DNA of 64,000 bases from Selaginella moellendorffii. Lineage: Eukaryota; Plantae; Lycopodiophyta. The notes under the pieces are model-generated. The model made no database searches. It had not been told where the DNA came from and saw only the letters and a program-made list of their open reading frames with translations. Below are positions 1,817-15,480 of this stretch, in pieces. Each line of letters starts with the position of its first letter. Position 1 is the stretch's first letter. The position numbers and the translations under genes were made by a program. The stretch lies in NCBI RefSeq assembly GCF_000143415.4, contig NW_003314276.1, forward strand, positions 2,080,091 through 2,144,090. The letters run 5' to 3'.

Positions 1817-2452
1817 TTTATTCAGTAAAATGGGACTAGGTACAAATTTTCAAGTATTTGAAAATGACGTGAAATTATATGTTTTTTGTCCAGGGACTAG
1901 ACATATCTGGGGCATGGTGACTAGCGCGGTGACCTTATGTCCAGACTGAGTCCATCTAGTTGTATAATAAATCTCATTGTCAAGGTGAACAAGCCGAATC
2001 TGAAGCTAAAGAAGAGCGATGGCATGCGCGCACACACTATTTGTTTGTTCATTGAGCGTGTGGTGAGCTTTCCAAGATGAACATCATTCCTATTAGCCAG
2101 ACATATAACTTAATAGTGAGAACATTTAGATATTATTCAATGTTATCTTTTTCTAACGAATCTAATTGTGAAGGTGTAGCAAGAGGCATTGCTAGTCTGG
2201 AGAAGTCATTTAACTCATTTGACCCTTAGTGTATTTTCATGAAACTAAATAACATTCATATTATTAAGGAATTTCTCTAGTACCTTTTTTTTACGACATA
2301 GAGGCTTGCATTTCTTTCAAAGGTGATTTAGTAAAAGGCCTGAGAGCACATGCCATTCTATTTCTCAGACCGGTATTAAGATATACTAGTGCAAAGGGAA
2401 AAAGGTATTTGGTGATCAAGTAAATGGCATGAGGGCACATGCCATTATAAGC

Positions 2453-2812
2453 CTAAGCGCTAGTGGACACCTCCTTTTTGGTACTCTCAGCGGTACTATC
2501 ATCCTTCTCCGGGTCAGTTGTTTTGCTTTGGATTGTTGTCTCTGACGTTACTGGGGCGTTCTCGATAGTTGTTAATGTTGCCGTTTGTTCAGAAAAATGA
2601 TCACCTGGAGTATAGTACGGGGAGTTTGGAAGACTTATATATTCTACATCTTCACCTATCTCCTTCTCCGTCTCCTTTTCTGCCTCACTTACAGATTTTG
2701 TGCTTGCCATGAGAACGCTCTTCACCCTAAAATATGGAGTTCGTTGTGTTATAAAAGGAAACCAACACACACGCTGCAAGGGAATGATGGTACATAAAGC
2801 ACGTAAGCCCAC
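2453..2812 (-). CDS. Possible small ORF or downstream exon inside the transposon (Ser/Thr/Glu-rich)
   Basis: 119-codon ORF with a protein-like low-complexity tail; no recognisable domain. Confidence 0.25.
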   Translation of the reverse strand: MGLRALCTIIPLQRVCWFPFITQRTPYFRVKSVLMASTKSVSEAEKETEKEIGEDVEYISLPNSPYYTPGDHFSEQTATLTTIENAPVTSETTIQSKTTDPEKDDSTAESTKKEVSTSA

Positions 2813-3421
2813 AATATGGGTTTATGTGCCATTAATATGGGCCACACGCCATATTATTAGATTTATGCACGTGTGATTGGTAAATGCATATGTCACATCA
2901 TCTTTGTTTTACCTCACACACTATATCAGGCCTAATGAACCATATCACATGTGCGCACATGCTATATATATGGAGAAGTATTATGCAAGGATAGAAATTC
3001 AATGCATGATTGTGGAGAGCAATGGCATGAAGCCACATGCTAAATAACATTTTAGAGAAAGAATTAAAATAAAAACATGCAAACAGTACTAAGTGGACCA
3101 AGACTTAGAAGTGCACAATTGAATGAGGTATTTTTAATAAATACTTCACTCACCTCATATAGGAATGGCTACCACTCTCAAATGGCGTATCGCCTCATGC
3201 CATCACCTCGCAATTTGTTATAACAATCCGATAAATTTATATTCGGCTTGTTCACCTTGAACTTTAAGTAAGATTTGCTAGAACAACTAAGAATTTATAC
3301 TTGTTATTTGTATCATCTCACCTAGGAATGGCGTAAGGCCACATGCCATCACGCCTCCTCTGATTCAGATTCGGATTGTTCACCTTGAAATAAAATACAT
3401 TAGAAACTTAGTAAAGGAATA

Positions 3422-12210: not shown

Positions 12211-14198
12211 AAGAAAAACAGTATCTTCTCTACGAACCTGGTGAGTACGCACTTTAAGTTTAAATGTTATCTCACAAGCTCTGTATGCAGGAGCGTGGCC
12301 ACCCCCAGATGCTGAAACGGCGTTAACAGCTACTGATGTTAGGCCGAGGTCACAACCTGCACAAGGTAAGGTCACGTGAGGCCTCACGCCATTTTGATTA
12401 TAGATCGTTGTGAATATTCAGACACGAGGACTGAAAAGTGCACTGGTGGCACGTCGAAGAAGGACAAACAGACAAGCAATAGGAAAAAAGGAGGTACAAA
12501 TTATATTTGCAATGGCGTGTGGTCTCATGCCATTCCTTGCAGGAGACACTTCTTCAAAGGCAAAACAGGCAAGCACCAGCCAAGCTCAAACTGACAGTGG
12601 TCATAAAAAGCGAAAGCACGTTGGACAGTCGTCGGGATCAGAGGCGTTTGATTCGAAAAGGAAGAAGGGCAACGAAAAGATGATAGGTAATGCCTCGCGG
12701 TTATGGCGTGTGTGCTCATGCCATTCATTGCAGATCAAGGGCTGAGTGAAAGGAGCCAGTCACCACCTTCTGACTCAGATTCCTATGGCGGACTCCCCTT
12801 CCCCAATCTCAATGGAGAGGTACAATGGATGAGGGATGCTTTTCAAGTCAGGGCCACGTTTTTCTCATCTCGTCGTCTTCGAAGGGTGCAAGAACGTGCA
12901 GAAACCATGTTAAGACAATCGGGTGAGGATACGGTCCTAGGTCACGCACTAAAACAGGCTATGGATGTCTTGTATTTTGAGATGGAGACTCGGCCAGATG
13001 ATTTTTCCAAGATGGTCCTTGAAAAACAAGCAATCCAGCCTGAGCAGCCTATGGAAGAAATGCAAGAGGGGGATGAGGAGCCAGAGAAAGATAATGAGCA
13101 GGAAGAGCAGAAGGACGAAGAGGAGGACAAAGAAGAGGAGGACGAAGAAGAGGAGGATGAAGAAGAGGAGGACGAAGAGGACTTGGATGGTCCTCACAAT
13201 GGTGACGATCACAATAACAACGATGACGATGATGACGACGATGGCCAGCCTGAGGTGGCCAAAGAGCAGCGGAGGAAGGTCATACAAGACAAACCATTAG
13301 GTAAATAATAGTACATCCATTCCTAACCTTTTACCATTTCTAACATTGTCCATGTAGGTTGCAGAAGAAATGGTAAGTAGAGATTATTCAGTTGAATTAA
13401 GATACAAACTCTAGCCTTTAGTGTCGAGGAAGGATAGTGCCAAGCAAGGGTCAAAACGTATGTCCAATCCTTCAGAATCAGCAGTGCGCCCAAGTGATAT
13501 CGGTCCTAGTTCCTCAATAGCAGTTGATGGTAAATACAGTATAGTCGATTCAATGTGCTAATGAGTTTGCTTTTAGTAGCACGGGAGGATACCATCTCAA
13601 TCGAAGGGAGATATTTGGACATGCATATGGATCCGCCAGTGGACTCTACTTGCCTGCAAGAGTCATCAGAGCTGGTGGAGGCTACTATCCATATCAACGC
13701 CAAGCAAGCTGACCACGCTCCACTTGATGCTACCCATACCACTGAGTCAATCTTGTCCACGTATCCAACTGATGGTGACCAGGCGCCATTGGACCCACAT
13801 GAGGCCGCCCCAGCCACCGAGCCGGTCGTATCCTCATTTCCAACGTGTGCCCAATCGTCTGACTATGCGCCGTTGGAACCTCCCTACACCGCCCCTGCTG
13901 CCTGTTCGGTCATGTCCACTTTGCCAACGGAGGCACCAGCTGAAATGGCGTGTGATCACACGCCATCGGAACCACCCCATGCCACTGTTGAGCCAGTTGT
14001 ACCAGAGTCTACAGCTGAAATGGCATGTGCCCACACGCCATCGGATGCGATTGACCCCACATTGCAGAGGAGAGTATTTCCGCCCTTCACGTTTCCTCGA
14101 CCAAAACCCTCATAATGACCATCGGGAGCACCATTCGCTAATATTGTAGATGGTAAAATTGACTTGTACCATTTTTTATGCTGACGCATTTCATTTCA

Positions 14199-15062
14199 GA
14201 GTCACGGCGAAAGTACTGTATCGTTTTTGATCTGAACGGTGTCCTTTTCTCCCATGAGCATGGCTCATCCTTGAATGTCACTGCACCCTCCAAAGCCTGC
14301 AGTCGCAAGTTGGTCAAAAGAGACAGATTCACATTAATCACACGGGAGAAACTGCGGGATCTAATAATGACCATGCGACACTTAAAACAGAGGGCCGGGT
14401 TCAATTTGCAATTGGGAGTTTGGACATCCATGATGCGCCACAATGCATTAACATTGCTACAGATGATGCACAATCAGACGCGAGTAATATTACCATTTGA
14501 CTTTCTCCTAACGCAGGAGGATTGCTTGACTATGGTCCATGTGAGGGGTAGCAAGCCCATCTTCGTCAAGGCAGAGGCTGTAGTGATGAACCGGACTGCT
14601 AGGTCAAGTGAAATCCTCATCATCGATGACTCGCCGATTAAAACTGCAGCGAACACACACACATATGTAGTGCACCCCATCTCTTGCAGTATGGAAACTA
14701 GGGAGAAGAAACCGTATGTTCTGGGGGACCTTGCAAAACGGCTTGAAGCGATGGTGATAGAGAACCGGCCAGTCCAGGAGGTGGCTGCAGAAATCAACCA
14801 AATGGCAGATGGAACGGTATATCAGAAGCCATTTGATCGGACAGACACCAGTCATCATTTATGGCATGTATATTGTCTAGCCAAGCACTATCCGCATCTC
14901 CATAATCTGCTCAACCGGATGGGTTCTTCGACCACTGAACATGAGCGTGGACGTATTAGAGAAGAGATGGCATTACTATTGGGTTTAAATCCTGATAGTG
15001 TGGAGAGTGATGAAATTCCAAGATTATTGTATAGGCGTTGGAGGCAAAAAATAACAGTCTGA
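14199..15062 (+). CDS. FCP1/SCP-like (NIF) HAD-family phosphatase domain exon
   Basis: CIVFDLNGVL (motif I variant), LGVWTSMMRHNA (motif II), TQEDC, KPIFVK, ILIIDDSPIK (motif IV). Confidence 0.8.
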   Translation, partial: ESRRKYCIVFDLNGVLFSHEHGSSLNVTAPSKACSRKLVKRDRFTLITREKLRDLIMTMRHLKQRAGFNLQLGVWTSMMRHNALTLLQMMHNQTRVILPFDFLLTQEDCLTMVHVRGSKPIFVKAEAVVMNRTARSSEILIIDDSPIKTAANTHTYVVHPISCSMETREKKPYVLGDLAKRLEAMVIENRPVQEVAAEINQMADGTVYQKPFDRTDTSHHLWHVYCLAKHYPHLHNLLNRMGSSTTEHERGRIREEMALLLGLNPDSVESDEIPRLLYRRWRQKITV

Positions 15063-15480
15063 GATGGCATGTATTTATTTAAAAATGTAACTTATTATGG
15101 CATGGGGTTCCATGCCATTGTATTAATATTAAAAGACAATTCTTTAAGAGGATTTGCATTATACTAGAAGTGTTACAGCATGTTATTGGAAGTCTACGAA
15201 GTTGTTTTATTAATAAGGGGAAAGTAAAGATTGAATGGGGACTTGGGCTCCACCTAGACTCGGAGCAACTGAGCCAATATTAAAAGGATGGAAAGAAATT
15301 GGACGACGATGACAAGGAGAAGAGAGAGGTGAAACAGTGGCAGGGGGAGGAGAAGTGATTGAGTAGACATTTCCTTGTTTAAAATAAAATGGCATGTGCC
15401 TCAATGCAGTTGAATTTTGTTATATTTATATACTATATAAAGGTTTGGAAACCTTATTTTACAAGTGGGATAATGACAAT

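Follow-up and report, generated by a model that had tools for sequence, protein, structure and literature searches.

A palindrome dispersed through a DNA transposon of Selaginella moellendorffii and a neighboring gene for a predicted ParB-like protein

Genes for ParB-like proteins have been described within transposons of algae. In Ectocarpus, the element Sola1-1_Ec32 carries a ParB-methyltransferase gene opposite the transposase (PMC12477816), and in the red alga Bostrychia a ParB-like gene of the Plavaka element PAG3 lies beside tandem inverted-repeat arrays that were proposed to be binding sites (bioRxiv 10.1101/2025.02.11.637652). ParB-helix-turn-helix methylase fusions also occur in chlorophytes (PMC4738411), and because of these three cases the idea of a ParB-type accessory protein binding its own transposon already exists. 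Recognition of a transposon by its own protein is also represented by VANC21, whose sites are found in introns, intergenic regions and terminal regions (PMC5735166). Statements on the literature refer throughout to parts of the sources cited. The present analysis concerns a 64,000-nucleotide stretch of the Selaginella moellendorffii contig NW_003314276.1 (forward-strand positions 2,080,091 to 2,144,090; hereafter the window), in which a DNA transposon contains 28 strong copies of a 22-bp palindrome, largely outside predicted coding DNA, together with a divergent accessory gene whose product has a predicted ParB N-terminal fold.

A dispersed palindrome confined to one transposon

A symmetric weight matrix for the palindrome (consensus ATGGCRTGWGSSCWCAYGCCAT) was run over the 64-kb window and detected 29 sites with a score of at least 8, 28 of which scored at least 12. 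All were located at 2019-15410, which confirmed the approximately 30 dispersed copies reported in a preliminary description of the locus; a further copy suggested near 6769 was a weak match with 4 mismatches and a score below 8. No copy was detected in the other 50 kb of the window, where the top matrix score was 7.5. Exact arms (TGGCRTG-N(4-10)-CAYGCCA) were observed 11 times, always with a spacer of 6 bases and always at 2425-15117, while 100 shuffles produced none, and a chance origin was ruled out. The density of half-sites was 2.9 per kb inside the element and 0.04 per kb outside it.

Comparison of the copies indicated that the commonest base had a mean frequency of 0.88 per column in the arms and 0.36 in the flanks. 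The earlier view of conserved outer arms was therefore borne out, while that of a variable center of 6 to 8 nucleotides was not: the spacer was constant at 6 bases, giving an 8-6-8 geometry, its positions 10 (G) and 13 (C) were conserved to about the same extent as the arms (0.89), and variation was restricted to positions 9, 11, 12 and 14. The flanks were mostly unrelated, with a median identity between copies of 0.30, except that neighbors were more alike (0.35 for 15 neighboring pairs versus 0.26 for 363 distant pairs; p 0.012). As close neighbors share more flank, several copies are likely to have arisen by local duplication, after which the flanks decayed. One 36-bp duplication, at 7372-7409, takes in the palindrome at 7392 and is absent from other family copies. 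No tandem-repeat row extended over the copies, as had been proposed, and flanks near background gave no sign of a larger unit, so that a tandem satellite and the remnant of a miniature inverted-repeat transposable element were both ruled out.

No compensation was observed in the 36 symmetric pairs that departed from the consensus, and variation at position 6 was independent of that at position 17, with 9 A-C pairs observed and 8.8 expected. The lack of compensation and this independent variation argue against a hairpin and for a pair of half-sites recognized in the double helix, and the palindromes thus look like sites for a protein on double-stranded DNA, a pattern consistent with the dimeric protein anticipated by the preliminary description. 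At these positions CpG may be replaced by TpG, a change that, we infer, a reader of methylated DNA would accept. A function as an RNA or DNA hairpin was ruled out by the lack of compensation. It could still be proposed that the palindrome is a self-copying or micro-mobile hairpin, or an RNA or cruciform structure, that was spread by slippage or conversion and was tolerated outside the domains. Such an origin would account for the greater sharing of flanks between neighbors, the recent duplication at 7372-7409, the perfect tandem stages at two related loci (L032 and L030) and the ability of some copies to fold as hairpins. We nevertheless regard it as improbable, given the uncompensated departures, the chance rate of A-C mispairs, a fixed spacer with conserved positions that do not look paired, retention of the motif while the flanks are near background, and one intronic copy whose folding was no better than that of shuffles (z 0.45).

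The placement of the copies was examined with the matrix scan and predicted gene models. Predicted coding DNA constituted 7,978 of 13,604 bp yet contained 4 of the 28 copies, equivalent to 0.50 per kb versus 4.27 per kb in non-coding DNA, an eightfold difference (p 1.7e-6). Avoidance of long coding stretches and clustering downstream of the transposase, in leader introns, between the genes and in small introns were thus as previously described (Table 1). Ten copies were present inside 6 of the 11 predicted introns, with three in the predicted leader intron of each gene. The two in-frame copies in the transposase fell in a loop that is gapped and variable in an alignment of homologues, and decayed 75-bp repeat units were detected upstream of the two in-frame copies in the accessory gene. 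Three of the small-intron palindromes were situated directly before a common TYC(A/C)TTGCAG-type acceptor. Within 10878-12733, three small predicted introns ended in a palindrome followed by an almost identical acceptor, and phase-1 introns bounded each of the exons of 75, 72 and 144 bases; these are likely to be duplicated intron-exon units.

The element that carries the palindromes is a cut-and-paste DNA transposon with terminal inverted repeats, as demonstrated by its inverted ends, target-site duplication, empty site and DDE transposase. The terminal repeats, to which the palindrome is unrelated, were identical at 24 of 25 aligned bases. In a self-comparison, 426-1792 and 15502-18604 were contiguous within a paralogous repeat at 57661-62170, with no DNA between them and the empty site at 59021-59027. 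Contigs from public runs joined other flanks exactly at 1793 and 15504, and long public contigs diverged from the window element by approximately 1-2%, which together indicated a young multicopy family. Decay of the window copy consisted mainly of C-to-T and G-to-A changes; 24 of the 50 listed change sites that were classed were in CG or CHG contexts, which hold approximately one-third of element cytosines. The 4-bp length of the target-site duplication matches Sola1, while the one sequence observed, AATC, is not of the AWWT form preferred by that group (PMC3845634), from which the Ectocarpus element departs as well.

Several further features of the element were observed. In one public contig the left end was followed for 44 bases (1793-1836) and then immediately by a palindrome, which suggests a related subfamily or a non-autonomous derivative. 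Short runs resembling the plant telomere repeat TTTAGGG were present in the intergenic region at 7821-7854 and 8620-8700, and this region varied in other copies, with joints at 7512-7752 and 7814-8320. Mirror-image short repeats rich in CTCGCG/GCTCGCA were located directly upstream of both genes, at 6857-6990 and 9071-9210, and are possibly a second, CpG-rich promoter motif. Outside the element, 18000-64000 consisted largely of nested repeats, among them the remains of a Gypsy-type gag-pol region at 35300-40150 (minus strand), and a C2H2 zinc-finger open reading frame at 31792-33027 (minus strand) is probably a host gene.

Table 1. Positions of the transposon, its genes and domains, and its palindromes within the window
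Feature	Position	Strand	Remarks
Whole DNA transposon	1793..15504		13,712 bp including a 108-N gap; inside a repeat resembling a long-terminal-repeat retrotransposon
Left target-site duplication, AATC	1789..1792	+	
Right target-site duplication, AATC	15505..15508	+	
Left terminal inverted repeat	1793..1819	+	about 26 bp
Right terminal inverted repeat	15478..15504	-	
Transposase, DUF7869 DDE type	3422..6491	-	1022 aa; Pfam PF25273, E 5.8e-42
Predicted leader intron of transposase	6493-6801	-	
Accessory gene	9457..15062	+	predicted 11 exons, about 1635 codons
ParB/sulfiredoxin-fold domain (predicted)	10353..10763	+	conserved P, AD, F, GQH, A, R, N, R
Possible degenerate beta-class methyltransferase fold (MDFTN, VEYNCGG)	11574..12239	+	resemblance by eye
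NIF/HAD phosphatase-like domain (DLNGVL)	14202..14663	+	PF03031, E 6.7e-6, above cut-off
Seven palindromes downstream of transposase	2019..3349		2019, 2335, 2424, 2944, 3022, 3182, 3328; matrix scan
Two in-frame palindromes in transposase	4670..4748		4670, 4727; variable loop before second catalytic Asp
Three palindromes in predicted leader intron of transposase	6573..6762		
Five intergenic palindromes	7392..8722		7392, 7464, 8328, 8566, 8701; weak extra at 7356
Three palindromes in predicted leader intron of accessory gene	9485..9643		
Four single palindromes in predicted introns of 47-56 nt	10899..12724		10899, 12371, 12512, 12703
Two in-frame palindromes in accessory gene	13945..14041		13945, 14020; 75-bp repeat unit of low-complexity exon
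Two palindromes downstream of accessory gene	15097..15410		

The accessory gene and its predicted ParB-like domain

The transposon has two genes arranged head to head, the DUF7869 transposase on the minus strand and a spliced accessory gene on the plus strand. The transposase, for which 12 homologues were detected, carries the motifs IIHDKMD, QTDN, ENKN and GHTHEDVD, which appear Sola1-like. A profile comparison of the accessory gene with the transposase revealed no likeness. For the accessory gene, a chain of GT-AG introns was predicted, nine of them 47-57 nt long, through which a single frame was maintained. Contigs of one public run, tentatively taken for RNA, continue through the predicted introns. 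The frame is broken in the window by a stop at 11451 and by two adjacent stops at 14114-14119; the stop at 11451 is specific to the window copy, as other family copies read C at this position. Continuity over intron 2 was weakly backed by a Riccia homologue (E 8e-4). Searches with exon 2 detected 17 matches, 16 of which were credible homologues, the other (P0060) being a repeat protein that was excluded. The named homologues belong to two liverworts, Riccia sorocarpa and Calypogeia fissa. Searches with exon 3 or with longer forms of exon 2 found no homologue.

The fold of the conserved domain was examined with an AlphaFold2 model built from 22 sequences, which had a predicted local distance difference test (pLDDT) value of 75. 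A single-sequence fold reached a pLDDT of 31 and was not used, and all results on the fold refer to the 22-row model. A Foldseek search with this model placed Noc and ParB on top, with a best E of 3e-4, and the 13 listed rows preceding sulfiredoxin were all ParB, Noc, PadC or KorB. The best four structure Z scores were 9.9 (PadC), 9.2 (KorB), 8.9 and 8.1. Overall, a ParB N-terminal fold in the product of the accessory gene is predicted with good support. Exon 3 opens with a helix-Gly-helix stretch that, by eye, hints at a helix-turn-helix. The putative methyltransferase region that follows the ParB-like domain had no match in Pfam, PHROG or the PDB, and the NIF/HAD domain is separated from the upstream frame by the two adjacent stops of the window copy. 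Pfam detected no ParA ATPase among the long open reading frames of the element and no VANC-family match for the accessory gene.

Palindromes at related transposase loci

A second element, L083 (G001:C12:574785-595352), was intron rich and animal-like and contained a DUF7869 transposase and a divergent gene with an exon resembling the ParB-like domain, with an imperfect inverted repeat at either end. This exon aligned with the ParB-like protein of the window at a blastp E of 2.8e-4, with 9.5 bits versus at most 3.9 in 999 shuffles; exon 3 of the window gene produced no BLASTP alignment with the L083 exon. The palindrome of this element is TTGAAATTTCAA, with 8 copies in a predicted intron of the ParB-like gene and a further 24 in a predicted transposase intron. 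The 16-Mb assembly G001 contained 40 exact TTGAAATTTCAA sites, all in three clusters corresponding to the L083 element and two relatives; the clusters of the relatives occupied corresponding intron positions, and no scattered sites were detected elsewhere in the assembly. Judged from sequence, L083 appears to repeat the whole plan, with a transposase, a divergent ParB-like gene and a palindrome of its own in predicted introns of both genes. Helitron-like helicase open reading frames come next at L083 14951-18999. Together with L088 and L089, L083 belongs to long, intron-rich, animal-like contigs with transposons inside an assembly titled Nitrospirales, and the animal-like contigs of G001 are probably host sequence that was binned together with a bacterial genome.

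A metagenome scan gave 80 loci with related transposases, which formed 16 nucleotide clusters. The palindrome of the window was not present as an array in any of the 80, and a search of viral contigs found no relatives. A strict dyad scan of the 80 loci detected 11 with at least 3 copies, two of these far from the transposase, versus at most 2 copies in shuffles. A tolerant scan was applied to sets of 30 and 31 loci, and twenty of the 80 were outside it. In the first set, 10 loci carried 4-12 copies of a locus-specific dyad, with shuffles and 8 control blocks from the window giving at most 3; in the second, scanned without a shuffle control, 12 loci had at least 4 copies. Examples of the dyads are TTTGGCCATATGGCCAAA (L001), CACGGGTGAACACCCGTG (L018), ACGAACGNNCGTTCGT (L073) and GTCGGCTGCCCGCCGAC (L009). 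A large decayed cluster had a common palindrome, ATGCCTAG-N6-CTAGGCAT, that matched the window motif in its 8-6-8 geometry; 8 of the 10 loci examined had groups of 3-9 upstream of their transposase, versus 0-1 in shuffles, the pattern having been derived from the same loci. Arrays ranged from perfect tandem (L032 and L030, with periods of 22 and 34 bp, respectively) through loosened tandem (L018 and L073) to dispersed (L009 and the window). Dyad arrays were also observed 9 kb downstream of the transposase match in L031 (20719-21500) and 4 kb upstream of it in L034 (5747-6300), and these may belong to the same or to other elements.

Across families the palindromes were 16-28 bp long. These data bear on whether the palindromes are sites of a host transcription or chromatin factor that were captured by each family for expression. 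Their non-coding, promoter-near and intronic placement would fit such an origin, as would the CACGTG-like cores of some motifs, including that of L010. The length of the sites, their differences from family to family in presumably similar hosts, the lack of copies in the other 50 kb of the window and the lack of scattered sites in the 16-Mb assembly make it very improbable.

Palindromes also diverged between close relatives: in L030, L032 and L033 the transposase cores were 93-96% identical, and the palindromes were altered in both arms. This divergence is relevant to the proposal that the palindromes are internal sites of the transposase, or of its N-terminal TnpA-like part, and serve in synapsis of a long element or in self-activation, as for Spm TnpA and AtMu1. 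TnpA binds motifs specific to its family and removes methylation from cognate copies, as does the AtMu1 transposase; arrays are present beside transposases at loci where a ParB-like gene was undetected, and the N-terminus of the window transposase has a weak TNP1/En-Spm match (E 0.01, below the cut-off). Conversely, the window palindrome is unrelated to the terminal repeats and occurs throughout the element, whereas TnpA and AtMu1 sites act at the termini, and palindromes differ between transposases with nearly identical catalytic cores, a comparison confined to those cores. We consider a transposase reader possible, if somewhat doubtful.

Candidate function and comparison with known systems

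By analogy with VANC, whose sites are likewise found in introns, intergenic regions and terminal regions, we lean toward a reading in which family-specific parS-like palindromes are read by the accessory protein for self-marking or anti-silencing. The ParB-fold protein would recognize the palindromes as a dimer, and the bound palindromes would single out cognate copies for a VANC-like protection against silencing. Copies would arise through local duplication of units of approximately 20-140 bp, the flanks decaying while selection retains the 22-mer, and dense sites would make recognition specific to the family. With CpG and TpG interchanging independently at positions 6 and 17, binding would be able to survive methylation and its decay.

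Several observations weigh against this proposal. The introns of the element are predicted. Sulfiredoxin and a serine kinase have the same fold as the ParB-like domain, with Z scores of 7.7-8.1. The arginine patch of ParB, GERRxRA, is replaced by GQHSSLA, of which GQHS is common to the window protein and the majority of its homologues, and CTP clamping may therefore be lost. The ParB-like match of L083 was weak in a profile comparison (probability 10%, E 0.003). In the tolerant scan, 20 of the 30 loci of the first set had no array of at least 4 copies, many of them having little non-coding DNA in the sequence scanned. A ParB-like gene was detected in none of the 80 metagenome loci; these are short or decayed, and they include long, decayed ones that bear arrays and have up to 10 kb of upstream sequence. 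An association of arrays with the accessory gene is thus limited to the window and L083/L088. Finally, transposases alone can be sequence-specific activators (bioRxiv 10.64898/2026.08.24.746577).

A broader version of the anti-silencing proposal can be formulated, in which a widespread class of transposons of eukaryotes, found in both bryophytes and animals, would have turned the ParB/parS device into a sliding-clamp anti-silencer of the nucleus. A nucleotide-gated ParB-fold dimer would load at intron-hidden, family-specific palindromes and spread over the element, taking along methyltransferase-like and CTD-phosphatase-like domains that modify chromatin or polymerase and keep cognate copies active, and paired sites and readers would turn over rapidly. 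We regard this extension as doubtful.

Among the described systems, Sola1-1_Ec32 is a giant Sola1 element with a 4-bp duplication and an opposite-strand accessory gene, whose product has a ParB-like domain and was proposed to bind the element that encodes it and to modify it. It differs in having a predicted N4C/N6A methyltransferase partner and a 282-bp terminal repeat, and the term "palindrom" is absent from the main text (PMC12477816). In the window element any methyltransferase is degenerate at most and is followed by a NIF/HAD domain, the terminal repeat is approximately 26 bp and 28 dispersed sites were mapped. The Plavaka element likewise combines an accessory gene for a ParB-like domain with inverted repeats as proposed sites; it belongs to the EnSpm superfamily and has a 2-oxoglutarate (2OG)-oxygenase partner and tandem arrays beside one gene, whereas the window sites are element wide, occur in small introns and in some cases in frame within coding sequence, and vary from one family to the next.

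VANDAL elements with VANC resemble the window element in that a family-specific motif is concentrated in non-coding DNA of a multigene transposon and spreads by tandem duplication. They belong to the Mutator superfamily and have non-palindromic motifs of 8-9 bp, and both binding and demethylation have been demonstrated for VANC (PMC5735166). The window element instead has a DUF7869 transposase, a 4-bp duplication and an accessory gene with no VANC match in Pfam, and its palindromes are candidate binding sites. Spm TnpA and AtMu1 share clusters of a family-specific motif read by an element-encoded protein; they differ in the terminal location of sites and effects and in a binder that is derived from the transposase and not of ParB fold (bioRxiv 10.64898/2026.08.24.746577). 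The bacterial ParB/parS, Noc/NBS and KorB systems have in common with the window the ParB N-terminal fold, predicted here, several long palindromic sites and a specificity that can shift between relatives (PMC7333895). The window element differs in the replacement of the GERRxRA patch by GQHSSLA, in the lack of a ParA and in a gene that is eukaryotic and intron containing.

In a literature search that left most subscription papers and Repbase reports outside its scope, no account was found, for either land plants or animals, of Sola-type elements with family-specific palindromes spread over their whole length and into their introns. The algal proposals, in the text examined, neither define nor test a site at base level. 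The window element offers a precise 22-bp candidate site, a candidate reader and relatives with different sites, so that a direct swap of specificity is possible. If the anti-silencing proposal is true, self-recognition of the VANC kind would reach bryophytes and animals and involve a third protein fold, and these families would provide a set of orthogonal protein-palindrome pairs functional in eukaryotic chromatin.

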